In this document: positions 1-10,956 of the stretch, in pieces | How positions within the stretch are numbered: the first letter of the stretch is position 1 | Layout of the letters: every line of letters starts with the position of its first letter | Origin: Candidatus Levyibacteriota bacterium | Lineage (GTDB): Bacteria > Patescibacteriota > Microgenomatia > Levybacterales > UBA12049 | NCBI GenBank assembly: GCA_016182235.1 | Contig: JACOXT010000005.1 | Location: 677 to 64,676, forward strand | Direction of reading: 5' to 3' | Length of the DNA: 64,000 bases | Position numbers and translations under genes: made by a program | The notes under the pieces: model-generated | Told to the model about the DNA's origin: nothing | The model's input: only the letters and a program-made list of their open reading frames with translations | Databases searched by the model: none

Positions 1-301
1 GATGAAAAAATCGGGAGTATTGATAAATATCGGAAGAGGCGGAGTAGTAAATGAAAAAGAATTAGTTAAGGCTTTAGCTTCTAAAATTATCGCGGGAGCG
101 GCTTTGGATGTAACAGAAGAGGAACCTCTTCCCAAACAAAGTAGGCTTTGGGAGATGGAAAATGTAGTCATAACTCCGCACCATTCTGGTTGGTCAGAAA
201 GATACATGGATCGCGCGATTGATATTTTTGTCCTTAACCTTAAAGCTTACCTCCGAGGAAAGCCCTTGCCAAATCTCGTTGACAAAAAACGGGGATATTA
301 A
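1..301 (+). CDS. D-isomer-specific 2-hydroxyacid dehydrogenase family protein, C-terminal part (5' end outside window)
   Basis: ORF 2-301; INIGRGGVV, AALDV..EEPLP and TPHHSGWS match the NAD-binding/catalytic C-terminal half of this family; first Met probably internal. Confidence 0.8.
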   Translation, partial: MKKSGVLINIGRGGVVNEKELVKALASKIIAGAALDVTEEEPLPKQSRLWEMENVVITPHHSGWSERYMDRAIDIFVLNLKAYLRGKPLPNLVDKKRGY

Positions 302-378
302 TGTCTGAAAATTTGATATTATTTGATGTTGTCTATGTTATTGACAACAAACTATAATAATTATAAAGTGAATAAACA

Positions 379-759
379 ATGAAAAAAACTCAACAAAAAC
401 AACAGGAGGCCATTCTAAGCATCCTTAAACCAATTGCTAAAAGAATAGAAGAAGCAACTGTAGACATACACGAAATGAAAACAGATCTCAAATGGGTAAA
501 TCTTAGACTTAGTAACCTAGAAGGGGACACAAAAATAATGAAAGTTGACATAATAAAAGTGCGCGGAGATATAGACAATATGCGAGGAGATATGAACCAG
601 ATGAGAAGTGTACTAGAAGACAAACTAATAGGAATTGAGAATAGGCTACATAAAAGAATTACTAATGTCGCAGATTTAATTGCAATGTCCCTTGTTAAAG
701 AGTTTAAAACTGTAGATAAGAGGATTAGAAAAATTGAGCTCGCACAGCAACCCGCATAA
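379..759 (+). CDS. hypothetical coiled-coil protein
   Basis: 126-aa ORF with heptad-like charged/hydrophobic pattern (NLEGDTKIMKVDIIKVRGDIDNMRGDMNQMRSVLEDKL); no family recognised. Confidence 0.5.
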   Translation: MKKTQQKQQEAILSILKPIAKRIEEATVDIHEMKTDLKWVNLRLSNLEGDTKIMKVDIIKVRGDIDNMRGDMNQMRSVLEDKLIGIENRLHKRITNVADLIAMSLVKEFKTVDKRIRKIELAQQPA

Positions 760-782
760 CTCTTTTCAAACTATCTTCAAAC

Positions 783-791
783 TGCTAAAAT
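783..791 (+). promoter_or_regulatory. extended -10 element (TGcTAAAAT) 8 nt upstream of the thrS ATG
   Basis: tgc+taaaat at 783-791, ATG at 800; same architecture recurs at about ten other genes in this window. Confidence 0.45.
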
Positions 792-799
792 AAGTTTCA

Positions 800-2026
800 A
801 TGGATAAATTAAAAAACAAAGACCACAAACAAATAGGCCAAGAATTGGAATTATTTTTCACGAACGATATCGCGCCAGGTGCTCCTTTTTGGCTACCAAA
901 GGGAATGACTATCTTTAAGGAACTGGAAAAATATATACGTGAGCTAACAGAAAAAGCAGGATATCAAGAGACTTCAACTCCAATAATGGTAAAATCTCAG
1001 CTTTTTAAAGAATCAGGCCATTGGTCAAAATTTGGCGAGCACAATATGTACAATCTTACTTTATCAGATGAGGCAGATGATACAAAACCAGTAAGTTACA
1101 CATTAAAACCCATGAATTGTCCTGAATCAACCCTTGTCTATAGATTCAGACCTCGAAGTTATAAAGAATTACCATTAAGGTTTTCCGAAATAGGAAGATT
1201 ACACAGGCGAGAAAAATCGGGTGAAGTTAACGGTCTATTAAGAGTAAGACAGCTAACAATGGACGATGCGCATATCTATGCTACAGAGGGTCAGATTTTT
1301 GATGAGGTTTCAAATATTCTAGATATGATGATTGCGTTTTATAAAAATTTTGGTTTTGAATATGAATTTAGATTTGCTACGCGCCCTGAGCAAAGAGCAG
1401 GGGGAGATGAAATATGGGATAAAGCCGAAAAGGATCTAGCGGAAGTGCTTAAAAAAAGGAGAATTAAAGCAGGAGACAAAAAAGGCGATGGGGCTTTTTA
1501 TGGACCAAAAATTGATGTTCATATAAAAGATTCTTTAGGCCGGGAATGGCAACTCGCAACAGTTCAGCTAGATTTTCATCAGCCAGAAGCATTCAGCCTT
1601 ACTTATATTGATAATGACGGTAAAGAGAGAAGACCTGTTATGATTCACAGAGCTATTTTTGGATCTTTTGAAAGATTTATCGCTATATTAACCGAACATT
1701 ATCAAGGCGCTTTCCCTTTGTGGCTATCTCCCATTCAAGTTTCAGTCCTGCCGATTGCGGATAGGCATAACGAACACGCAAAAAAAATAGCCGAAGAATT
1801 AGAAGATAACAACATAAGAGTTGCAATTGATAATAATCAAGAAACGCTGCAGTTAAAGATTCGTAACTCTACTTTACAAAAAGTACCCTATTTAGTTATA
1901 ATAGGGGATAGAGAAGTAGAGAATGGAAATGTCTCGATAAGAACTAGAGAAGGAAAGGACTTAGGACAATTAAAATTATCTTACTTTTTAAATAGATTAA
2001 AAGAAGAAATTGATAAGAAGATTTAG
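800..2026 (+). CDS. thrS: threonyl-tRNA synthetase, catalytic core plus anticodon-binding domain only
   Basis: 408-aa ORF; class II motifs YTLKPMNCP, FSEIGRLHRRE, RVRQLTMDDAHIY, HRAIFGSFERF and a C-terminal anticodon-binding domain; N-terminal TGS/editing region absent. Confidence 0.93.
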   Translation: MDKLKNKDHKQIGQELELFFTNDIAPGAPFWLPKGMTIFKELEKYIRELTEKAGYQETSTPIMVKSQLFKESGHWSKFGEHNMYNLTLSDEADDTKPVSYTLKPMNCPESTLVYRFRPRSYKELPLRFSEIGRLHRREKSGEVNGLLRVRQLTMDDAHIYATEGQIFDEVSNILDMMIAFYKNFGFEYEFRFATRPEQRAGGDEIWDKAEKDLAEVLKKRRIKAGDKKGDGAFYGPKIDVHIKDSLGREWQLATVQLDFHQPEAFSLTYIDNDGKERRPVMIHRAIFGSFERFIAILTEHYQGAFPLWLSPIQVSVLPIADRHNEHAKKIAEELEDNNIRVAIDNNQETLQLKIRNSTLQKVPYLVIIGDREVENGNVSIRTREGKDLGQLKLSYFLNRLKEEIDKKI

Positions 2027-2636
2027 CAAAAAAAGACAAGACAACAGAAGGTTCTATAGGATAAATGAGCGTATTTTTGCAAATACGCTTCGAATTTTGG
2101 ATGCAGAGGGAAAGCAAGTTGGGATTTTTTCTAGATTTGAGGCTTTAAAAAAGGCGCGTGAGAATGGTTTAGATTTGGTGGAAGTTGTTCCGATGGCAAA
2201 TCCGCCGATTGCAAAAATCATAGATTTCAAAAAATTCTTATACCAAGAAGCGAAAAAGAAGAAAGAAGAGAAAAAACGAAGTAAGATTTCAGAAACAAAA
2301 GAGATAAGATTAGGGCCTTTTATGAATGACCATGATCTTCAGGTCATGGTGAGACGAGGCACGGTATTTTTGACAAATAATGACAAAATTAGATTAATTG
2401 TAAAATTTGTCGGACGCCAGATTGCACATCCTGAATTTGGACAAGGTATAATACAAAAGGCAATTGATGGGCTGTCTGGTCTTTCAAAAATTGAAAGACC
2501 GCCTCATTTTGAGGGAAAACAGTTAATCGCGATATTATCACCAGAAAGGAAAGGAGCGCAGTCGCCCAAGGCGACGAGCTCGCCTGCAAGCGAACCCGCG
2601 TCAGACGCGGCGAAGCGGACAGGCGTGGAAACCTGA
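2010..2636 (+). CDS. infC: translation initiation factor IF-3
   Basis: RINERIFANTLRILDAEGKQVGIF, NGLDLVEVVPMANPPIAKIIDFKKFLY, IRLIVKFVGRQIAHPEFG; no in-frame ATG near the 5' end (track start TTG 2010), overlaps thrS by 17 nt; C-terminal tail encoded by a GC-rich hairpin block. Confidence 0.92.
   Translation: MIRRFSKKRQDNRRFYRINERIFANTLRILDAEGKQVGIFSRFEALKKARENGLDLVEVVPMANPPIAKIIDFKKFLYQEAKKKKEEKKRSKISETKEIRLGPFMNDHDLQVMVRRGTVFLTNNDKIRLIVKFVGRQIAHPEFGQGIIQKAIDGLSGLSKIERPPHFEGKQLIAILSPERKGAQSPKATSSPASEPASDAAKRTGVET
2556..2630. repeat. GC-rich block of three consecutive hairpins, translated as the IF-3 C-terminal tail
   Basis: gtcgcc-caa-ggcgac (2561-2575), gctcgcctg/caagcgaac (2578-2595, 7 of 9 pairs), ccgcgtc-a-gacgcgg (2596-2610); compositionally unlike the AT-rich surroundings. 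Confidence 0.6.
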
Positions 2637-2647
2637 TAATAAAGTAA

Positions 2648-2845
2648 ATGAAAAAGAAGAAAATAAAGAGCTCAGTGTCAAAAAGATTTAGAGTAACAAA
2701 AACGGGCAAGGTAATGTTTTCGCATCAATACAAATCTCATTTGAAAATAAATAAGTCGGGAGCAAGACTTCGAAGACAGAAGGAGCCAGGAGTTCTAAAA
2801 GGAAAGTTCGCCAAAAAAATAAAGCAGATGATGGGAAAGGCATAA
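2648..2845 (+). CDS. rpmI: 50S ribosomal protein L35
   Basis: 65-aa basic ORF, KSSVSKRFRVTKTGKV..HQYKSHL; conserved position between infC and rplT. Confidence 0.93.
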   Translation: MKKKKIKSSVSKRFRVTKTGKVMFSHQYKSHLKINKSGARLRRQKEPGVLKGKFAKKIKQMMGKA

Positions 2846-2846
2846 T

Positions 2847-3197
2847 ATGGCTAGAGTTAAAAGGGGAGTAGTATCCCGAAGAAAACATAGGAAAATTTTA
2901 GAGCAAGCCAGTGGCTATCGGGGACTAAGAAGCCGAGCACAAAGAAAAGCTCATGAGGCAATTCTCCATTCGGGAGCTTACGCTTACCATGGAAGAAAAC
3001 TTAGAAAAAGAAATTTCAGAAATCTTTGGAATCTAAGAATAGGGGAGGCGGCAAAGCAAAATGGGTTATCTTACAGCGTCTTTATAAATAAACTTAAAAA
3101 ATCAAAAATTGAGTTGGATCGAAAAATATTGAGTGATCTTGTTGTAAATGACTCAACGACTTTTAAATTCATTCTTGACAGCGTAAAAAATACGTGA
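2847..3197 (+). CDS. rplT: 50S ribosomal protein L20
   Basis: MARVKRGVVSRRKHRKIL..GYRG...AYAYHGRKLRKRNFRNLWNLRI. Confidence 0.95.
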   Translation: MARVKRGVVSRRKHRKILEQASGYRGLRSRAQRKAHEAILHSGAYAYHGRKLRKRNFRNLWNLRIGEAAKQNGLSYSVFINKLKKSKIELDRKILSDLVVNDSTTFKFILDSVKNT

Positions 3198-3210
3198 TAA
3201 AGTTGTTATT

Positions 3211-3242
3211 AACAATGAAGCAATATAGCAATATAACAATTT
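3211..3242. repeat. 8-nt period AT-rich array (aacaatga/agcaatat/agcaatat/aacaattt)
   Basis: caat recurs at 3213, 3221, 3229, 3237; overlaps the start of leader peptide 1. Confidence 0.6.
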
Positions 3243-3268
3243 TTGGTTTTTACTTTACCTTCGCATAA
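3215..3268 (+). CDS. Phe-rich leader peptide MKQYSNITIFGFYFTFA (pheM-like)
   Basis: ATG 3215, TAA 3266-3268; 4 Phe + 1 Tyr codons in the last 9 codons; stop codon abuts attenuator segment A. Confidence 0.6.
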   Translation: MKQYSNITIFGFYFTFA

Positions 3269-3344
3269 GCGGAGGTTGAGTTTAATAGAATAAACATTCA
3301 ACCTCCGGGTGTACTGAAAGGTGCATCAAAGCGGAGGTTTTTTT
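3269..3344 (+). promoter_or_regulatory. three-segment transcription attenuator (antiterminator A:B versus terminator B:C)
   Basis: A cggaggttga 3270-3279; B tcaacctccg 3298-3307; C cggaggtt 3332-3339 followed by T7; A:B and B:C are mutually exclusive. Confidence 0.6.
3300..3344 (+). terminator. intrinsic terminator of attenuator 1
   Basis: aacctccg (3300-3307) pairs with cggaggtt (3332-3339), inner tgtac/gtgca helix, then seven T (3338-3344). Confidence 0.55.
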
Positions 3345-3464
3345 ATGCAGACCTTGTCAAGCGTAAGCGAGACTTAGAGCTGCATAATCCCGCCGAAGTC
3401 CAAAAGGACGAAGGGGGATGTTTATAAAATTGAACTGAGTTCGGTGAAAAGGAGGTGAAAATAT

Positions 3465-3725
3465 ATGTCAGTTGAAAGAAGATGGAGAATGCCAATTCCA
3501 AGACCTTATGTATTAGAGAATGATGTCAAACCAGTTAAGTTAGATTATCATTCAGACAACATTCCTAAATCGCATAGAACTCTCTCAAAGAAAAAACGCT
3601 ATGGCTTTAAAGAAAACTTTCGGCAAGGACTAAGACTGTATGGGGGTAATGTAAGGGTTGATGTTGACCTCACGCAATTGCGACTTAGTCCAACTGTACT
3701 ATTTGGAAAAAGTCCTAATTCATAA
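3465..3725 (+). CDS. hypothetical small basic protein (86 aa)
   Basis: strong Shine-Dalgarno aaaggaggtg 7 nt upstream of ATG 3465, which is rare in this window; no family recognised. Confidence 0.45.
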   Translation: MSVERRWRMPIPRPYVLENDVKPVKLDYHSDNIPKSHRTLSKKKRYGFKENFRQGLRLYGGNVRVDVDLTQLRLSPTVLFGKSPNS

Positions 3726-3776
3726 AAGTCTAAAAACCATTTCTTTAACGTGAAAAGAGGGTAGTTTTGTGTTATT

Positions 3777-3826
3777 CTAAAAGTATGGAAGAAAGCCTGA
3801 TGCAGATCAAAAACTCTGCGGTTTGA
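3777..3826 (+). pseudogene. duplicated 5' fragment of pheS (upstream 9 nt plus first 13 codons, then stop)
   Basis: 36 nt tatggaagaaagcctgatgcagatcaaaaactctgc identical to 8010-8045; ctaaaagtatg also shared with 7987-7997; copy 1 lacks the 17 nt ataatcttatatttatg of the real locus. Confidence 0.8.
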
Positions 3827-3858
3827 CAACCATAAAGCAATCTGATATTATAACAATA

Positions 3859-3942
3859 ATGAAAATCAATTACAGCACTAACCATTTTTGGTTTCATTTT
3901 TATCCTCTCAATGGGGAGGTCGTTGCTGTTTTGAATTCATAA
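3859..3942 (+). CDS. second Phe-rich leader peptide MKINYSTNHFWFHFYPLNGEVVAVLNS
   Basis: ATG 3859, TAA 3940-3942; HFWFHFY block (3 Phe, Trp, Tyr) just upstream of segment A; ORF reads through segment A. Confidence 0.5.
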   Translation: MKINYSTNHFWFHFYPLNGEVVAVLNS

Positions 3943-3995
3943 CAGCATAAGCAAGATAACTTGCGTAACGAACCTCCCAAACGGGAGGTTTTTTT
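3913..3995 (+). promoter_or_regulatory. second three-segment attenuator, upstream of the 962-aa gene
   Basis: A gggaggtcgtt 3914-3924; B aacgaacctccc 3967-3978 (one bulged A); C gggaggtt 3983-3990 followed by T7. Confidence 0.55.
3971..3995 (+). terminator. intrinsic terminator of attenuator 2
   Basis: aacctccc-aaac-gggaggtt then seven T (3989-3995); 8-bp GC-rich stem, 4-nt loop. Confidence 0.65.
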
Positions 3996-4006
3996 GTGAT
4001 AAAAAA

Positions 4007-6895
4007 GTGAATTATATGAGCAGGGAAACTTTAGATATAAATACAAATAATTCAAACTCTGAGAACCCATTTTCTAATGAAGTTGGGAAACGTCAAAGAC
4101 TTATTGCTTCTGTGCAAAAGTTAGGTGACTTGAGAGAGTACACAGAAAGTAGCGCAAATGCCATAGGATCTTTAGAAGCTGAGGAGACGATAATAGCCAA
4201 CGCTCCATCTCTGGGACTTATTATTAATGGATCCCTTAAAGCTGCTAAAGGTGGCAGAATTAATGGAAACTCGGGTTTAGAGTCTCGTGTTGCCTCATTA
4301 CCACCTACGCAAGTAGATCAGGCTCAAGCACAAATTGATCTGCTGCTAAATACCATATCAGTTATCGGTAGTCTTGCTTCCGCCAGACGACTAGAACCAT
4401 ACTTGCCAGTTGTACTCCCTAGAACTCAAGCAGGATTTAAAACTTTAAGGCAGATCGCTGAGCAGTATGCTGAAACAATACCTCTTCCGGATAATGGATC
4501 AGGGGATATTCCTACGGCATTAAGGGTGTTAATGAATCTCGATGAGCAGTTAAGGATTGAAGGTTTAAAAGATCCAATTGTCGTTGAGGCTTTAAGTGTT
4601 TCTGCGAGACAACTAGCACAGGTGAGGTTGGAAAAGTCAAAAATAGATGGATCTGAACAAGTTTCTAAAATTAGGGCAGAACTAGCTCAACAGAGAATTT
4701 ATGCTTTGAAAAGAGAACCCGTTGAAGTACCTGGCACTCGTGGATTTTCAAGATATGAAGTTTTAGCGAATCAAATTATTGAAAGAGAGGGTTTATTTGC
4801 TCAAACTGACTCTGCTAGAGCCGAAGCAGAAGCCAGACTCAAAAGAGAGCAAGAAACAGTTTTAAATGTTATTGCTAAGAAGAGAGCAATTGGAACTGTA
4901 ATATCTTTAATTGATCAAGATCCTCTTTTATGCCAAGTATTAGCTCAAAGATCACGCCTTAATCCTGATGATTTATTAACAGCTGATCTGGGTAAAAAGA
5001 GACTGATTGCCAACAATGCTCTAAACGCTAAAAAGATTATTCTGTCCGTTGAAGATCGAAGGATGTTTAATGGACAGACTGTGATCGCAGAGGAAAGAGC
5101 AAAATTGACACAAGCCTTACTCGATCCATTATCTTTTATCGCTAGACTTACTGATGATGAATTATTAGTTATTCGGACGGGAATCTCTAAGATTTCAGAT
5201 GAGCGTTCGATATACGAATTAGCCGGTGAAAGGCTAAAAAAACAATTAGAGGATGAGGTTACAGATAGTGAGATAATTTCTGCTCTCACAGGAATACTTT
5301 CAGAACAAATACTCGTTGCCAGAGCCCCAGATGCTGTAAATGCTGCAATAGCAGAGTTGGGTATTGATGGAAGTTCGGTACTGAAAGATCCTAGCAAGCT
5401 TGATCAGTTGAAGGATGAAATAATTGCTCGTGGATTAGAATTAGTGGTTTCCGCTTCACAGGAAGAAACAAATGTAGGAAGAGCGCTTACCATAACAGAT
5501 TCCGAGAGGAGAAGGCAAAGAGAAGTCTCTCTAGCTTTAATGAGGGCACGAGAGTCAAATAGTAGAGCCTCAGATACAGAAGCTAGGTTACTTTTGGATC
5601 AAAGTATTGAAGAACCTGGCACTGATAGTTTAGGTGTTATAAAGCTAAGAGAGGATATTAAATCTACTTTAGGTCCATTCCAAACTTATCCAGAATATAA
5701 AACTACATATCCACGAGTAGTTACTCAGGCTTTAGAAAATTTGTATGGGGAATATAATCAGGCTTTTCGTCGTTTGGTCGCTGCCAATAAAGAATTCGAT
5801 ACAGAGTATCAATATTGTCTTTCACCCGATGGAACGCCTATAAACAGCTTCGTTCAAATTGATATGGTTGGATTACCAGCTGGGTTTTTGGAGCAAGCAG
5901 AAACTTTAAGAGAAGAGGATGTTAGGGAAGCTTTAAGAGGCCGAATCTTTGAAATAGAAAATTCTATAGCAATGTATTCGCTTTTAGAATACTTCTTTTC
6001 AGATGGAACACAAGATACTCTTTTTAAGAGGCAATTCCGCGGCGGTTTAGACGACATTAGACAAAAATATGGGCGACCAATCGCCCTATTGGCTGCTACT
6101 GATCAAAAATATCAGGCAATGAGAGAGACTGAATTCGGCAAAAGAGATGGTGAGCCATTAACCGATGACGAGGTGAGTGAGTATTCAGGATTTGATAAGT
6201 TCTTTTCTCCTGAGGAGTTCAAAAAATATTTAGAGGAAAATGGTGGGGAGTCTAGCTATCTTCTATATGTGCGCTCTTCCGATCCTGTAGCGAAGATGAA
6301 AAGGCCAGATTTGGTAATTGATGAGGAGCTTTTAGCAGATGAAAACTTAAGAAGAATAATTAAAGCAAATGCGCTTACTTTTAACATTGATAATCCTAAC
6401 TTGCCAATCGGAGATAGTAGACGCATAAATGATACCAAGGAATATCTTGGTGCAATGGGCATGGCTTTTCCAGTTTTTTATGGAGAGGATCTTACTTCTC
6501 CTGAGTTTAACTCCTATTTGAGATCGCAAGGTGTAGATCCAACACAAGTGGAATCCGGAGAGAGACTTTTGCGTGCTAAACCTATGAAAGGAACTTATGG
6601 AGGATATGGTCATTTTCGAGGAACCCCAGGAGATGCAAGGTTTAGACGGGAATTAAGAGACGCTTTGTTAAAAAGAGGCTCGTACGTTGTCCAGCCTGAG
6701 TTACAAAATCCTACGATAACAAACCAAGACGATGGACGCTCTTATATGTATATCGATAGAGTCTTTTTCTCCAATGATGGTCAAAATTATCGATTTATGG
6801 GTGGCGAAAGAACACTAATGCCTATTGATTCTATTGAGGCTCAAAATAATAGGGTTCATGGAAATAGTTCCTCAGTTTATGCTGAAATAATATAG
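4007..6895 (+). CDS. large hypothetical protein (962 aa) with C-terminal ATP-grasp-like domain
   Basis: GTG 4007 or ATG 4016; long helical N-terminal two thirds unassigned; C-terminus has LRAKPMKGTYGGYGHFRG, GSYVVQPELQ, YIDRVFF..YRFMGGERTLMP..NNRVHGNSSSVYAEI, resembling ATP-grasp (glutathionylspermidine-synthase/circularly-permuted type) motifs; looks G+C-richer than its neighbours. Confidence 0.6.
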   Translation: MNYMSRETLDINTNNSNSENPFSNEVGKRQRLIASVQKLGDLREYTESSANAIGSLEAEETIIANAPSLGLIINGSLKAAKGGRINGNSGLESRVASLPPTQVDQAQAQIDLLLNTISVIGSLASARRLEPYLPVVLPRTQAGFKTLRQIAEQYAETIPLPDNGSGDIPTALRVLMNLDEQLRIEGLKDPIVVEALSVSARQLAQVRLEKSKIDGSEQVSKIRAELAQQRIYALKREPVEVPGTRGFSRYEVLANQIIEREGLFAQTDSARAEAEARLKREQETVLNVIAKKRAIGTVISLIDQDPLLCQVLAQRSRLNPDDLLTADLGKKRLIANNALNAKKIILSVEDRRMFNGQTVIAEERAKLTQALLDPLSFIARLTDDELLVIRTGISKISDERSIYELAGERLKKQLEDEVTDSEIISALTGILSEQILVARAPDAVNAAIAELGIDGSSVLKDPSKLDQLKDEIIARGLELVVSASQEETNVGRALTITDSERRRQREVSLALMRARESNSRASDTEARLLLDQSIEEPGTDSLGVIKLREDIKSTLGPFQTYPEYKTTYPRVVTQALENLYGEYNQAFRRLVAANKEFDTEYQYCLSPDGTPINSFVQIDMVGLPAGFLEQAETLREEDVREALRGRIFEIENSIAMYSLLEYFFSDGTQDTLFKRQFRGGLDDIRQKYGRPIALLAATDQKYQAMRETEFGKRDGEPLTDDEVSEYSGFDKFFSPEEFKKYLEENGGESSYLLYVRSSDPVAKMKRPDLVIDEELLADENLRRIIKANALTFNIDNPNLPIGDSRRINDTKEYLGAMGMAFPVFYGEDLTSPEFNSYLRSQGVDPTQVESGERLLRAKPMKGTYGGYGHFRGTPGDARFRRELRDALLKRGSYVVQPELQNPTITNQDDGRSYMYIDRVFFSNDGQNYRFMGGERTLMPIDSIEAQNNRVHGNSSSVYAEII

Positions 6896-6904
6896 AATTA
6901 ACAT

Positions 6905-7978
6905 ATGTTAAATAAAATTGTAAATTTAACCAAAGAGTTTGTTTCCGTTAAATCAAACTCAGATAATCCAGCTGAATTAGATAAGATATTAGAAATTGCC
7001 TTGTCGAACCTGAAGGAATTTACGATTGAGCGATTTACGAACAAAGGTGTTAAAAGCGCCTTAGTTTACAATTCCAAAAAAAGACCCTCAAAATTTAGGA
7101 TTATCCTAAATGGACATTTAGATGTGATTCCAGGAAAAGATTATCAGTATTCGCCGAAGATTAAGAACGACAAACTTTATGGTGTCGGTTCGATGGATAT
7201 GAAAGCCAGCGTGGCTTGTCTTATCATGGTTTTTAAGGAAGTGGCAGAAAAGGTTGATTATCATCTTGCTTTACAGCTAGTTACTGACGAGGAAATTGGA
7301 GGATTTAACGGCACAAAATTTCAGATAGAAAAAGGTGTAAAAGCTGATTTTGTGATTGCCGGTGAGAGCACTGGCTTACAGATTGCAAATAGGGCGAAAG
7401 GGATTTTACAAGTAAAGATTTCTACCAAAGGTAAAACTGCTCATGGAGCCTACCCGTGGAAAGGAAAGAATGCCATTTGGAAAATGAACCAATTTCTCAA
7501 CTCACTATTAAAAAAGTATCCAATTCCTTCTCGTCAAGAATGGGTAACAACGGTTAATTTGAGTAGGATCAAAACAACAAATACGTCTTTGAATAAGATT
7601 CCAGATGACTGTGAAATCTTGCTCGACATTCGATATGTTCCAGAGGAAGCAGATACTATTGTTAATGACATAAAAGAATTTCTACCCAAAGGCTTTAAGA
7701 TGGATATCTTTGAAAAAGAACCATCTCTGTTTGTCGATGACAAAAACCAATACTTAAAAATGCTCCAGAGCGTAGTCAAGCAAACTACTAAGAAGAAAGT
7801 ACGATTTTATGGTGCGCAGGGATCTTCCGATGCAAGACATTTTACGCGGGTATGTATTGATGGAATTGAATTTGGACCAATAGGTGGAGGTATTGGAACC
7901 GACAACGAATGGGTAAGTATAGAAAGTATAAAAACATATTACGACATATTAAAAACTTTTTTGCTAAAGTTAAAATAG
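6905..7978 (+). CDS. M20 family metallohydrolase (ArgE/DapE/ACY1-like deacylase/peptidase)
   Basis: LNGHLDVIPG, GVGSMDMKAS, LVTDEEIGG, AGESTG, TAHGAYPWKG metal-binding and catalytic motifs. Confidence 0.85.
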   Translation: MLNKIVNLTKEFVSVKSNSDNPAELDKILEIALSNLKEFTIERFTNKGVKSALVYNSKKRPSKFRIILNGHLDVIPGKDYQYSPKIKNDKLYGVGSMDMKASVACLIMVFKEVAEKVDYHLALQLVTDEEIGGFNGTKFQIEKGVKADFVIAGESTGLQIANRAKGILQVKISTKGKTAHGAYPWKGKNAIWKMNQFLNSLLKKYPIPSRQEWVTTVNLSRIKTTNTSLNKIPDDCEILLDIRYVPEEADTIVNDIKEFLPKGFKMDIFEKEPSLFVDDKNQYLKMLQSVVKQTTKKKVRFYGAQGSSDARHFTRVCIDGIEFGPIGGGIGTDNEWVSIESIKTYYDILKTFLLKLK

Positions 7979-8011
7979 TGCAATAACTAAAAGTATGATA
8001 ATCTTATATTT

Positions 8012-9049
8012 ATGGAAGAAAGCCTGATGCAGATCAAAAACTCTGCTGTTTCAATGATAATTGAGGCAGAGGATCAGAAAGAACTTGAGGAAATCAAGCT
8101 CCAATTCTTGGGAAGAAGCGGAAAATTAACTCTCGCAATGAAGGGAATTACCAAACTTCCCACAGGAGATAGAAGAGAGGTTGGTCAGCTTGCAAACGAG
8201 GTCAAAAGAGTTCTTGAAGAATCTATCAACGAACGAAGCAATTCGCTTAAGACTCAAGAGTCAAAAAAAAGGCGCGAAAAAATTGACATAACCAATCCAG
8301 GAGTAAGACCTGACATTGGCCATATTCACCCAATGTCTCAAGTTCTTTACGAAGTAGTTGATGTATTTAAGGGAATTGGGTTTCAGGCGGCTGACGGACC
8401 AGAAATAGAAACCGATCATTACAATTTCGAGATGTTAAATATACCTTCTGACCATCCAGCAAGAGATACACAACAAACACTTTATCTTGATACAAGGCAG
8501 AGCAAAGTCACGCCAGGGGAAATAATTCTACGAACGCAAACTTCAAGTATGCAGGGAAGAATCATGGAAAAAGTAAAACCTCCTATAAGAATAGTTGTTC
8601 CAGGGAAAAATTTTCGATACGAGCAGGTTGATGCGTCTCATGGATTTGAATTTTGGCAGGTTGAAGGATTTGTGGTTGACTCAAATGTAAGACTAACTGA
8701 CCTATTCGGGACAATTGAATATGTGCTCAAAAAATTAATGGGGGAGAAAACTAAAATAAAATTTGCTACGACTAATTTCCCATTCGTTGAGCCCGGAGTT
8801 GATACATATATTTCATGTACTGTTTGTAACGGACGCGGATGCAGTTTTTGTAAATATAGCACTTGGAGTGAAATTATGCCTGCCGGAATGATCCATCCAA
8901 ATGTCCTTAAGGCAGTTGGATATGATCATCAAAAAGTGGCAGGCTTTGCCTTCGCAATCGGGCTTTCAAGACTGGTAACGCTAAGGTATCAAATGGATGA
9001 TTTAAGACTATTGACAAATCCAGATCTAAGAATTTTGGAACAATTTTAA
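8012..9049 (+). CDS. pheS: phenylalanyl-tRNA synthetase alpha subunit
   Basis: HPMSQV, SDHPARDTQQTLYL, LRTQTSSMQ, FRYEQVDASHGFEFWQVEG, GFAFAIGLSRL. Confidence 0.95.
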   Translation: MEESLMQIKNSAVSMIIEAEDQKELEEIKLQFLGRSGKLTLAMKGITKLPTGDRREVGQLANEVKRVLEESINERSNSLKTQESKKRREKIDITNPGVRPDIGHIHPMSQVLYEVVDVFKGIGFQAADGPEIETDHYNFEMLNIPSDHPARDTQQTLYLDTRQSKVTPGEIILRTQTSSMQGRIMEKVKPPIRIVVPGKNFRYEQVDASHGFEFWQVEGFVVDSNVRLTDLFGTIEYVLKKLMGEKTKIKFATTNFPFVEPGVDTYISCTVCNGRGCSFCKYSTWSEIMPAGMIHPNVLKAVGYDHQKVAGFAFAIGLSRLVTLRYQMDDLRLLTNPDLRILEQF

Positions 9050-9051
9050 CT

Positions 9052-10956
9052 ATGCTAGCGCCTTTATCTTGGCTAAAAGAATTTGTTGACATAACATTAA
9101 CGTCTGGTGAATTAGGGGAAAAATTAACCGAAATTGGCCTTGGAGTTGAAAGAATTACAAGGGTTGATAATGATACTATCTTTGAGTTTGAAATCACTCC
9201 TAATCGACCAGATCTACTTTCAATTATTGGGATAGCAAGAGAAATAGCAGCTATCGAAGGCAAGAGGATTAAGTCAAAATCATACGAAATTAAAGTTTCT
9301 CACGCAACAACTCTTCCAATAAAGTTAAATCCAAATTATAAATTATTTCATAGGTGGACCGGAATATCTATTGCAAATGTTTCTATTAAGCCATCTCCGC
9401 AATTTATAAAAGACAGGCTTATAAAAATAGGTCTTAGGCCAATTAATAACGTCATTGATATAACAAACTATGTAATGTTTGAGTTGGGAGTGCCTCTTCA
9501 TGCGTTTGACTATGACGAAATTAAAGGACACGAAATGACGGTTGATCTTGCAAAGGGAGGAGAAAAATTCACATCTGTTGATGAAAAATCCTATCATTTG
9601 CCAAAAGATGCGATTATTATTAAAGATAATGAAAGACTCATAGATCTTGCGGGAATTAAAGGCGGGCTTAATTCAGGTGTAAGTGGTAAGACGAAAAACG
9701 TTTTTCTTCATGTAACAATAGCTAACCCTATGCTAATTAGAAGGGCGTCCATCGCATTGAGCCTCAGAAGCGATGCATCCGCTATTTACGAACGGGGAAC
9801 TAATAAAGGCGGGACAATTGATACGCTAAAACGCGCTGCGACACTCATACAAGAACATGCAGATGGAAAAATAGCAAGTCATCTTTTTGATTTGAAAAAC
9901 CAAGAATTTAAACCATGGAAATTGGCATTGAGGATTTCACGCCTTAATCAAATTATCGGAATAAAAATAGACGAAAAGAAAATAATAGATATTTTAGATT
10001 CGCTGAACTTAAATCCTCATGTCGTCCTGAGCAAGCAAAGCGCGTCGAAAGATCTCATCCTCATAGAATGCACAATCCCAACTTACAGAAACGATCTTAA
10101 AATTGAAGAAGATCTAATTGAAGAAGTTGCGCGTTTATACGGATACAATAATTTTCCAAAAACAATGCCAGTTGGAGAAATTCCAACTAAACGTGTTCCA
10201 TATTTCAAGGATTTTAACATGGAAGAAAATGCAAAAAGTATTCTAACTGCGAGCGGATTTTCTGAAATTTATACTTATAGTTTGGTGGGGGAGGACGATT
10301 TGAAAAGCTTCAATATAAAATCTGAAAACTGCATCAGAGTCGATAACCCAGTAAGTCGTGAATTTGAATATCTAAGACCAACCCTTAAGACAAATCTTTT
10401 AAAAGCTCTAAGACTAAATATGCCAAACTTCAAAAACATAAATCTTTTCGAGCTTGGCAAAGTTTATATAGGAAAACATTTAGATAATGTGAAAGAACAA
10501 TATTTTCTTGCTGGCATCACGAATGTGAAAAACTACTTTGAAGTTAAAGGAACTATTGAGCAACTACTTGAAGATCTGGGAGTAAAGCTTGATCCGACAA
10601 AATATATTGAGGTGTTAGATGAAGGGATATTTTTTGAGTTAAACTTTTCGGAAATTTTGCCTCTTGTAAGTTTAAATAAAAAGTTCAAACCTCTTCCTAA
10701 ATACCCGCCGATTATTGAAGACATGGCAATCGTTGCGAATGCTTCAGTAAAAACTGACGAAATAATAAAAGAAATCAAAAATCAAAATTCGCTTATTGTA
10801 AATGTTTCGCTTTTGGATAGTTTTGAAGAATCACGAACATTTCATGTTGTCTATCAAGATCCCCAAAAAAACTTAACAACAGCTGAGGTCTCCAAAATAC
10901 GCGAAAAAATTATAAATAACCTTAGGGAAAAATTTAAGGTAACTCTGAAAGAATAA
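9052..10956 (+). CDS. pheT: phenylalanyl-tRNA synthetase beta subunit (short form)
   Basis: LSWLKEFV (B1), EITPNRPDLLS, B3/4 and B5 regions, C-terminal PKYPPIIEDMAIV (FDX-ACB-like); the OB-fold tRNA-binding domain usually after B1 seems absent. Confidence 0.92.
   Translation: MLAPLSWLKEFVDITLTSGELGEKLTEIGLGVERITRVDNDTIFEFEITPNRPDLLSIIGIAREIAAIEGKRIKSKSYEIKVSHATTLPIKLNPNYKLFHRWTGISIANVSIKPSPQFIKDRLIKIGLRPINNVIDITNYVMFELGVPLHAFDYDEIKGHEMTVDLAKGGEKFTSVDEKSYHLPKDAIIIKDNERLIDLAGIKGGLNSGVSGKTKNVFLHVTIANPMLIRRASIALSLRSDASAIYERGTNKGGTIDTLKRAATLIQEHADGKIASHLFDLKNQEFKPWKLALRISRLNQIIGIKIDEKKIIDILDSLNLNPHVVLSKQSASKDLILIECTIPTYRNDLKIEEDLIEEVARLYGYNNFPKTMPVGEIPTKRVPYFKDFNMEENAKSILTASGFSEIYTYSLVGEDDLKSFNIKSENCIRVDNPVSREFEYLRPTLKTNLLKALRLNMPNFKNINLFELGKVYIGKHLDNVKEQYFLAGITNVKNYFEVKGTIEQLLEDLGVKLDPTKYIEVLDEGIFFELNFSEILPLVSLNKKFKPLPKYPPIIEDMAIVANASVKTDEIIKEIKNQNSLIVNVSLLDSFEESRTFHVVYQDPQKNLTTAEVSKIREKIINNLREKFKVTLKE
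10021..10056. repeat. GC-rich element gtcgtcctgagcaagcaaagcgcgtcgaaagatctc read in frame inside pheT
   Basis: translated as VVLSKQSASKDL; shares the GTCRTYCTGRG..GATCTC-type ends with the purH element at 15537. Confidence 0.5.

Follow-up and report, generated by a model that had tools for sequence, protein, structure and literature searches.

Can a bacterium with a very small genome sense the charging of an individual tRNA by letting a ribosome stall on a nascent message? The bacteria of the candidate phyla radiation are uncultured and have very small genomes, and to our knowledge they are generally regarded as having few known regulators. The question is raised by a short element that lies directly behind the ribosomal protein gene rplT in a stretch of 64,000 nucleotides (nt) from a Candidatus Levyibacteriota bacterium (contig JACOXT010000005.1); this whole stretch is referred to here as the window. 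For positions 3215-3344, a reading of the DNA letters (hereafter the original prediction) had proposed a Phe-codon leader peptide coupled to a terminator and an antiterminator, in the manner of Escherichia coli pheM-pheST. Folding, simulation and comparison with related genomes make it very likely that the element is a classical ribosome-mediated leader-peptide transcription attenuator, which senses charged tRNA-Phe as its main signal and tRNA-Tyr as a lesser one.

The element behind rplT has four segments that pair in mutually exclusive ways

The upstream open reading frame (uORF) opens with an ATG at 3215-3217 and ends, after 17 sense codons, with a TAA at 3266-3268. It contains four Phe and two Tyr codons, and five of these six are located within the last eight codons. 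The final nine codons, IFGFYFTFA, hold four Phe and one Tyr; length, codon count and stop position are exactly those originally given for this ORF.

The RNA from the end of the uORF onward can form either the 1:2 and 3:4 helices or the 2:3 helix (coordinates of the segments in Table 1). When the pieces were folded separately, the 1:2 helix, made of ACCUUCGC (3257-3264) and GCGGAGGU (3269-3276), reached -12.1 kcal/mol and carried the stop codon in its loop. The 2:3 antiterminator (3270-3284 with 3291-3307) reached -19.4 kcal/mol, and the 3:4 terminator (3300-3307 with 3332-3339, plus the inner hairpin 3308-3327) reached -21.2 kcal/mol. The terminator stem pairs AACCUCCG with CGGAGGUU, and seven T, at 3338-3344, follow directly 3′ of it. 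Folded as a region of 156 nt, the element gave z = -5.6, and none of 200 shuffled sequences folded equally well. The hairpin inside the terminator loop keeps its pairing, with a different sequence, in the FFFTFA-type copies of the related loci L001, L006, L011a and L028.

The segments called A (cggaggttga, 3270-3279), B (tcaacctccg, 3298-3307) and C (cggagg, 3332-3337) in the original prediction are real, the complementarity of A to B is that of the 2:3 helix, and both alternative helices are predicted by folding. The design is nevertheless one of four segments, and segment 1 (3257-3264) had been overlooked. A smaller correction concerns C, which had been written as "cggaggtt" and followed by seven T: two of the seven were thereby counted twice, since C ends at 3337 and the T-tract begins at 3338. 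The parts by which an attenuator is recognized, namely a uORF with clustered codons, four mutually exclusive segments, and a G+C-rich stem with a U-tract as terminator, are all present.

The position of the ribosome sets the choice of helix in simulation

Translation was simulated by blocking the RNA to 12 nt past the start of the A-site codon and computing the pairing probabilities. A ribosome at the stop codon covers segment 2, and the terminator then formed with a probability of 0.97. A ribosome on the regulatory codons spares segment 2, and with stalling at F10, F12, Y13 or F14 the probability of the terminator was 0.00. Comparable switching was obtained for many relatives. The logic proposed originally, by which stalling leads to A:B pairing and read-through, and arrival at the stop leads to B:C pairing and termination, holds in this simulation, and the comparative data agree with it.

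We propose the following course of events. A promoter overlapping the end of rplT would start a transcript that opens with the 17-codon uORF. When Phe is plentiful, the ribosome would reach the UAA in the 1:2 loop and cover segment 2; segment 3 would pair with segment 4, and the hairpin with its U7 tract would end transcription at about 3344. When Phe-tRNA is scarce, the ribosome would stall on the F-G-F-Y-F codons and cover segment 1 only. The free segment 2 would then capture segment 3 as it emerges, no terminator would be formed, and the polymerase would continue into an ORF of 86 amino acids (aa), past a second attenuator and toward pheS-pheT. In RNA that is not translated, for example in transcripts coming from rplT, the 1:2 and 3:4 helices would form in the order of their synthesis, and the element would double as terminator of the rplT operon. 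Because no terminator lies between rplT and the element, the rplT transcript probably also ends here.

Leader peptide, helices and T-tract are conserved in relatives

Forty loci with RplT were recovered from relatives, and an element of the same build is present in 22 of them, directly after rplT in most cases and farther downstream in others. The named relatives are mostly Levybacteria/Levyibacteriota, with one Gottesmanbacteria and several under other or generic labels. The shared build consists of an in-frame short ORF with a run of F/Y/W codons, ..CC-loop-GGAGGU, ACCUCC-loop-GGAGG, and U6-7. From the window and 22 related genomes 24 copies were aligned (alignment A2, which includes both window copies), and all 24 contain an in-frame uORF with an F/Y/W run. 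Metagenome contigs gave at least 120 matches to a degenerate DNA pattern; in the metagenome set of 80 loci, roughly 65 have a convincing leader peptide by our reading of the table, the rest being low-complexity junk or too short. The peptide of L058, MKQYSNSTIFGFFFTFA, is nearly identical to that of the window, MKQYSNITIFGFYFTFA.

The helices are kept as well. In a model-fitted alignment of 25 sequences the 1:2 and 3:4 helices are 93.6% paired, 7 of their 15 pairs are changed on both sides, and their covariation score was reached by none of 500 shuffles. Taken alone, the 1:2 helix is 93% paired across the family, with double-sided changes in four of seven pairs, and the 3:4 helix is 94% paired. 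The core of the 2:3 helix is 89.4% paired across the 25 sequences, against 45-64% for slid registers. Alignment columns 49/58/126/156, which are shared by the alternative helices, covary four ways (CGCG, GCGC or UAUG). None of the 24 sequences deviates in the T-tract, which takes up six columns of A2. The mini-ORF, the helices and the T-tract are thus retained in relatives with compensatory changes, which bears out the prediction.

A covariance model, R1, was built from the 24 copies of A2. On its own training sequences it scores 54-112 bits, partly by construction. In the 64-kb window R1 gave 78.6 bits at 3215-3344 and 85.6 bits at the second copy (both training members), and nothing else above 18 bits; a regular-expression scan, like the covariance model, found only these two copies in the window. 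Outside the training set, R1 hit the leaders of a gene cassette in L041-L044 (51.7-65.4 bits; see below), and pheL and pheM of E. coli.

The codon run follows the downstream gene

Behind the elements we found pheS-pheT, often preceded by a small ORF with a strong ribosome-binding site (RBS), or operons for aromatic and Phe biosynthesis. Operon genes confirmed by Pfam are those of DAHP synthase, aroB (3-dehydroquinate synthase), aroA (EPSP synthase), aroK (shikimate kinase), aroE (shikimate dehydrogenase), chorismate mutase, prephenate dehydratase, prephenate dehydrogenase and an aminotransferase; the pheS-pheT pairs of relatives were read from translations and matched by BLAST to L001. A count of the table of 80 metagenome loci gave PheS downstream in 20 and aro/phe genes in 22, with RplT often upstream. 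Cognate genes, pheS-pheT or aro/phe operons, therefore follow the leader family-wide; locally the 86-aa ORF comes first. Of 20 leaders that precede common aromatic-pathway operons, 17 contain a Trp codon; of 34 that precede genes for PheS, prephenate dehydratase or chorismate mutase, only 7 do (Fisher p = 9e-6, for sequences that are phylogenetically non-independent).

Leaders of the same design with other codon runs are weaker R1 hits. Thr runs, TTTT and TTT, precede thrS-type genes: MRKLNFICCRTTTTP in L001 and MKKLFKINTTTFF in L014 stand before genes for a threonyl-tRNA synthetase-type (class II core) domain, which we read as thrS. The runs IISIII, LIIVIL, LIITVL and QIIVL precede small ORFs and, in L019, two M20 peptidases. 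The leaders of this design lie at L001 5432-5543, L014 5368-5464, L017 554-674, L009 4522-4639, L018 4244-4359, L012 4527-4634 and L019 878-979.

The match between codon run and target gene is the strongest argument for ribosome-mediated sensing, and these bacteria seem to make general use of attenuation by leader peptides. With moderate confidence we extend the reading to the Microgenomates (Levybacteria, Gottesmanbacteria and relatives), which would run lineage-wide a set of near-leaderless attenuators on one GGAGG/CCUCC scaffold, with the codon run swapped according to the target: Phe/Tyr for pheS and the Phe branch, Phe/Tyr/Trp for common aromatic operons, Phe/Tyr/Trp/His for a cassette encoding a 962-aa protein and an M20 enzyme, Thr for thrS, and Ile/Leu/Val-type runs for others, including M20 peptidases.

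The uORF starts next to a promoter-like site

A promoter-like site, whose -35 box is inside the end of rplT (stop codon at 3195-3197), ends 11 nt before the ATG of the uORF, and no Shine-Dalgarno motif accompanies it. The arrangement recurs in the family: 21 of the 24 elements show a TTGACA-like box, a spacer of exactly 17 nt and a TAnnnT box, in many cases with TG, the site ending 6-13 nt upstream of the uORF start; a Shine-Dalgarno-like motif precedes the start in only one of the 24. Hence the uORF is predicted to be near-leaderless, with the transcript probably starting 3-5 nt before the ATG. The start codon is in frame with the aromatic run in every copy. The N-terminal residues and their number are free to vary, and the F/Y/W run is retained by means of codon swaps among UAC, UAU, UGG and UUC.

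In the window the TGA stop codon of rplT (3195-3197) is overlapped by a GTG (3194-3196) that shares the frame of the uORF. Through this GTG, ribosomes that end rplT could reinitiate into the leader peptide; the overlap (3194-3197) is not conserved in L001.

Relation to pheL, pheM and other known systems

The order thrS-infC-rpmI-rplT-leader-pheS-pheT is the same in E. coli and in the window, with the leader between rplT and pheS, and in L001 the order is leader, small ORF, pheS, pheT. E. coli pheM shares with the Levybacteria copies a short uORF with an F/Y run (FYFYFTS or FGFYFTFA in the latter) and a CCUCC..GGAGG terminator followed by a U-tract, and R1 matched pheM over its full length and at the annotated start (34.9 bits, E = 1e-4), a match that shared constraints could explain. 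The best match of R1 in E. coli was however pheL, again full length and at the annotated start (43.1 bits, E = 4e-6), and other R1 hits in the same 15 kb of E. coli were at 14.5 bits or less. The likeness to pheM that had been proposed therefore stands for the rplT-leader synteny, whereas in sequence the fit to pheL (43 bits) is no worse than that to pheM (35 bits). The element differs from pheM in its promoter-like site 6-13 nt before a uORF without Shine-Dalgarno motif, predicted to be near-leaderless, in the stop codon in the 1:2 loop, and in the extra hairpin in the terminator loop; the lineage is also very distant. The position is only in part the one expected: the element does follow rplT, but the 86-aa ORF, a second leader and a two-gene cassette intervene between it and pheS at 8012.

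The pheL peptide ends in FFFTFP-stop and the Levybacteria copies in FFFTFA-stop or FYFTFA-stop. E. coli pheL has the stretch UUCUUUACCUUC in common with family members such as L006, L011a and L028, the window copy having UACUUUACCUUC, and in both pheL and the element the stop codon is placed between ACCUUC.. and ..GGAGG. As with pheL/pheA, relatives of the FFFTFA subtype precede prephenate dehydratase genes (L023b, L078, L093); unlike pheL/pheA, no pheA-type gene follows the window copy.

Rfam was scanned at E <= 5 for positions 1-10000, at gathering scores for the whole window, and for 12 related loci. The Phe_leader family RF01859 gave no hit to 3215-3344 in the scan of 1-10000 at E <= 5, and its scores elsewhere (27.4 bits for the second window copy, 33.4 for L011 and 29.2 for L078) fall short of its gathering score, 55. 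These scans produced no match to a T-box, L20 leader or riboswitch; sub-threshold Phe_leader hits were the only ones to these elements. The element is thus outside RF01859, and as Phe_leader misses the family, current annotation pipelines would not report these leaders.

Classical attenuators have been reported in Proteobacteria and Actinobacteria (PMC1262725), and pheL from the gamma subdivision only (PMC3082878). The actinobacterial attenuators, predicted by comparative genomics for trp, leuS, trpS and ilvB (PMC1262725), resemble the present ones as cases of leader-peptide attenuation outside Proteobacteria that include aminoacyl-tRNA synthetase genes and show triple-complementary patterns; they differ in amino acids, sequences and lineage, and no Phe/pheST attenuator is listed there (PMC1262725). 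The T-box upstream of pheS in Firmicutes performs the same task, a terminator/antiterminator choice in response to tRNA charging, but it reads uncharged tRNA directly and without translation, whereas the Levybacteria element is far shorter and has a conserved uORF.

The likeness to E. coli pheL and pheM may be convergent. A UUC in segment 1 needs GGA/GAG partners, a requirement that would carry GGAGG/CCUCC into each of the four segments; the scaffold is the same in the Thr and Ile leaders of these bacteria. A bolder interpretation would be that E. coli and these bacteria share the arrangement rplT-Phe leader-pheST by homology, whether inherited from an ancient ancestor or acquired by gene transfer, and not by convergence.

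Alternative explanations and points against attenuation

The element could be a mere intrinsic terminator of the thrS-infC-rpmI-rplT operon, with the Phe-rich ORF and the A:B complementarity arising by chance in a T-rich spacer. It probably does terminate rplT transcripts as well, and L016, L024, L027, L029 and L030 have a plain CCUCC..GGAGG-U7 between rplT and pheS, without a uORF. Yet uORF, frame, aromatic run, segments 1 and 2 and promoter-like site are kept in dozens of sequences, the leader unit occurs also away from rplT, before aro operons and the 962-aa cassette, and its codon type follows the downstream gene. On these comparative data the explanation by chance is already contradicted, and we give it hardly any credence. 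It is very unlikely too that the helices are real but the ORF incidental, the signal being read by uncharged tRNA (as in a T-box), a small molecule or an RNA-binding protein. Many non-Proteobacteria do regulate aminoacyl-tRNA synthetase genes by T-boxes (PMC1262725), and the nucleotides of the aromatic run, UUUUACUUUAC, are themselves well conserved. What is kept at the codon positions, where UAC, UAU, UGG and UUC interchange, is nevertheless the aromatic residue rather than the bases. The start codon is always in frame and adjoins the promoter-like site, and a Thr codon run coincides with thrS downstream. At ~130 nt the element is also too small for a T-box, it shows no obvious specifier or T-box motif, and no T-box or riboswitch was matched in the window at Rfam gathering scores or in 1-10000 at E <= 5.

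A mainly translational output would require that the GGAGG of segment 4, the U7 as spacer and an ATG or GTG act as an RBS, hidden by the 3:4 helix and exposed by the 2:3 helix, possibly on top of termination. In 21 of 27 elements the T-tract does run straight into an ATG or GTG, located 7-8 nt past the GGAGG of segment 4 (3345-3347 and 3996-3998 in the window). This codon starts the downstream gene in L033 (DAHP synthase) and L114 (PheS), and in the window, L043 and L044 a mini-ORF that opens at this GTG before the 962-aa gene overlaps the start codon of the gene itself. In the window, however, the ATG at 3345 opens an ORF of 10 codons only, the next gene has its own strong RBS 120 nt farther on, and a stable hairpin with U7 behind it has the textbook form of an intrinsic terminator. 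An ATG also follows two of the four plain rplT terminators inspected in relatives and may thus be a general terminator feature in these genomes. We consider it improbable that translation is the main output.

Several observations weigh against transcription attenuation as set out above. In the simulation a ribosome stalled at F16 still terminates (P 0.86), and L007, L022 and L023a switch poorly at equilibrium. The untranslated RNA of the window copy favors 2:3 plus 1:4 at equilibrium, with P(3:4) = 0.06, so that default termination would rely on the order of co-transcriptional folding, as in the classical model. The GGAGG/CCUCC cores are nearly invariant and the covariation rests on few flanking positions; kinship among the sequences inflates the shuffle statistics, and the structure itself guided the fitting of the alignment. 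The pheS of the window is 4.7 kb downstream, behind a second attenuator and apparently with its own TGnTAT..T promoter-like site before the ATG, and the direct target in the window may be mainly the 86-aa ORF. Finally, termination at 3344, the start site and the dependence on Phe are predictions; we infer ribosome stalling and Phe-dependent read-through from sequence, as we do the start of transcription.

Surroundings of the element in the window

Table 1. Leader element and neighboring features in the window
Feature	Coordinates	Strand	Remarks
thrS	800-2026		Window gene order
infC	2010-2636		Window gene order
rpmI	2648-2845		Window gene order
rplT	2847-3197		Window gene order
Promoter-like site	3175-3203	+	TTGACA 3175-3180, 17-nt spacer, TG-n-TAAAGT with -10 at 3198-3203; promoter scan
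Leader-peptide uORF, MKQYSNITIFGFYFTFA and TAA	3215-3268	+	Regulatory aromatic codons F10, F12, Y13, F14, F16 (3242-3262); sequence read
Segment 1, ACCUUCGC, codons T15-F16-A17	3257-3264	+	Pairs with segment 2
Segment 2 (A of the original prediction), GCGGAGGUUGAGUUUA	3269-3284	+	Partner is segment 1 or segment 3
Segment 3 (B of the original prediction), UAAAC..UCAACCUCCG	3291-3307	+	Antiterminator with segment 2 or terminator with segment 4
Extra hairpin in terminator loop, GGUGUACU-GAAA-GGUGCAUC	3308-3327	+	Folding
Segment 4 (C of the original prediction), CGGAGG, and U7 tract	3332-3344	+	Intrinsic terminator together with 3300-3307
ATG right after the T-tract and two hairpins	3345-3419	+	Hairpins 3345-3385 and 3387-3419; fold z = -4.0
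86-aa ORF, first downstream gene	3465-3725	+	Strong AAGGAGGUGA ribosome-binding site
41-nt duplicate of the pheS 5′ end	3784-3824	+	98% identical to 8011-8051
Paralogous second leader	3823-3997	+	Promoter-like TTGACA-17-TATTAT 3823-3851; uORF MKINYSTNHFWFHFYPLNGEVVAVLNS 3859-3942; terminator 3970-3991; T7
Two-gene cassette	4007-7978	+	Orphan 962-aa protein 4007-6895; M20 ArgE/DapE-type deacylase 6905-7978
pheS and 634-aa ORF in pheT position	8012-10956	+	pheS 8012-9049 (by Pfam); 634-aa ORF 9052-10956

Upstream of rplT, the thrS of the window codes for a short product of 408 aa that has the class II core and the anticodon-binding domain only; the form of L014 has 577 aa and also the second additional domain. 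A Thr leader before the window thrS was not found by regular-expression scan and covariance model in the window. The 3′ end of infC (2555-2635) carries small G+C-rich palindromes in frame, for example GUCGCC-CAA-GGCGAC and CGCGUCAGACGCG, and this stretch extends InfC by ~14 residues relative to L001. Similar palindromes, CCACGUC(A/U)GACGUGG, flank leaders in L001 and L006. No tRNA genes were found in the window, and no Rfam family reached its gathering score there.

Immediately downstream of the T-tract, the motif ATGCAG..GCGAGACUUAGnGCUGCAUAAUCC is common to the window and L001, and the hairpin frame is common to the window and L032. These hairpins (window 3345-3419, L001 5536-5600, L032 8491-8540) open with AUGCAG and close with CUGCAUAAUCC; the inner motif GCGAGACUUAG is present in the window and L001, and the inner stem of L032 differs. 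In L001 the structure also follows the Thr leader. It could be a stabilizer, a processing site or a second switch. That the motif is a dispersed repeat was rejected: GCGAGACTTAG and CTGCATAATCC occur once each in the window, which is the chance level, and GCGAGACTTAG is found in 2 of 46 loci.

The 86-aa ORF (3465-3725) had no protein-family match. Small ORFs of 60-130 aa with a strong AAGGAGGUGA RBS lie between leader and pheS in many relatives (for example L001 8508-8708 and L006 2484-2873). They are highly diverse, 34 of 49 being singletons in an all-against-all BLAST comparison, and they include one small Cys-rich family, GSCxGC...CPEG.

The duplicate at 3784-3824 is a stub of 13 pheS codons, and its TGA overlaps the TTGACA box of the second leader. 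Together with its counterpart at 8011-8051 it flanks the cassette as a direct repeat. We read the duplicate as a probable scar of cassette insertion. L001, the closest relative, has leader, small ORF, pheS and pheT and no cassette; pheS begins within about 240-260 nt of the leader in L001 and in L058, a short contig that lacks the cassette as far as it runs. The second leader, whose uORF combines aromatic codons with histidine, is 75% identical to the first over aligned columns. Three further, unrelated genomic contexts contain the 962-aa/M20 pair, one of them behind type IV secretion genes and another behind rpsI, and in each case the pair has a leader of its own that is rich in W/F/Y/H: YWFYFH, FWYHYH and WHFHYF (L041 5846-5987, L043 4469-4610, L044 5807-5941). 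Second leader and gene pair together look like a movable, self-regulated cassette.

The 962-aa protein had no match in Pfam, NCBIfam, or sequence and profile searches of the PDB. The product of 4016-6895 is identical to a GenBank protein from a genome bin of Candidatus Levybacteria. Among 5.8 billion proteins it has 21 homologues, and the three with source names are from Levybacteria or Daviesbacteria. Its AlphaFold model is mediocre (pLDDT, the predicted local distance difference test, 66.8), and a Foldseek search of the PDB returned nothing better than E = 0.07. A guess that its C-terminal domain is an ATP-grasp domain found no support in the searches.

The 634-aa ORF at 9052-10956 is presumed to be pheT from its position, its size and the pheS-pheT pairs of relatives, and pheS together with this ORF are the presumed final targets of read-through. 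A TGnTAT(T/C)CT-like box stands ~6-9 nt before the ATG of pheS, without a Shine-Dalgarno motif, in the window (7986-8014, and again at 3766-3787) and in L001, L004, L016, L020, L024 and L028; pheS may also be transcribed from its own promoter as a leaderless mRNA.

Implications for the Microgenomates

The literature searched contained no relevant description of a leader peptide or attenuation in the candidate phyla radiation, Patescibacteria or Microgenomates, which agrees with the original supposition that such attenuators are undescribed in genomes of this kind; one paper in which both terms occur uses "leader peptide" for bacteriocin precursors. Nor was any description of a cis-regulatory RNA from bacteria of the candidate phyla radiation found there. 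The family of probable Phe attenuators in the Microgenomates is large and, on the literature searched, undescribed. Its mechanism would be that of the textbook; its value is in the lineage and in the regulon that it reveals.

A conserved Phe attenuator would show that these bacteria sense the charging of individual tRNAs with a ribosome-stalling device of the E. coli type, and such sensing requires translation to keep pace with transcription. If the reading is true, the lineage-wide set of leaders would give these uncultured organisms their first cis-regulatory map, imply a tight coupling of transcription and translation, and assign orphan genes to amino-acid starvation responses. A gene located behind a leader of this kind is probably required when the amino acid in question is in short supply. 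Candidates for amino-acid scavenging would thereby be the 962-aa/M20 cassette, the variable small ORFs that separate leader and pheS, and the M20 peptidases that follow an Ile/Val/Leu-type leader.

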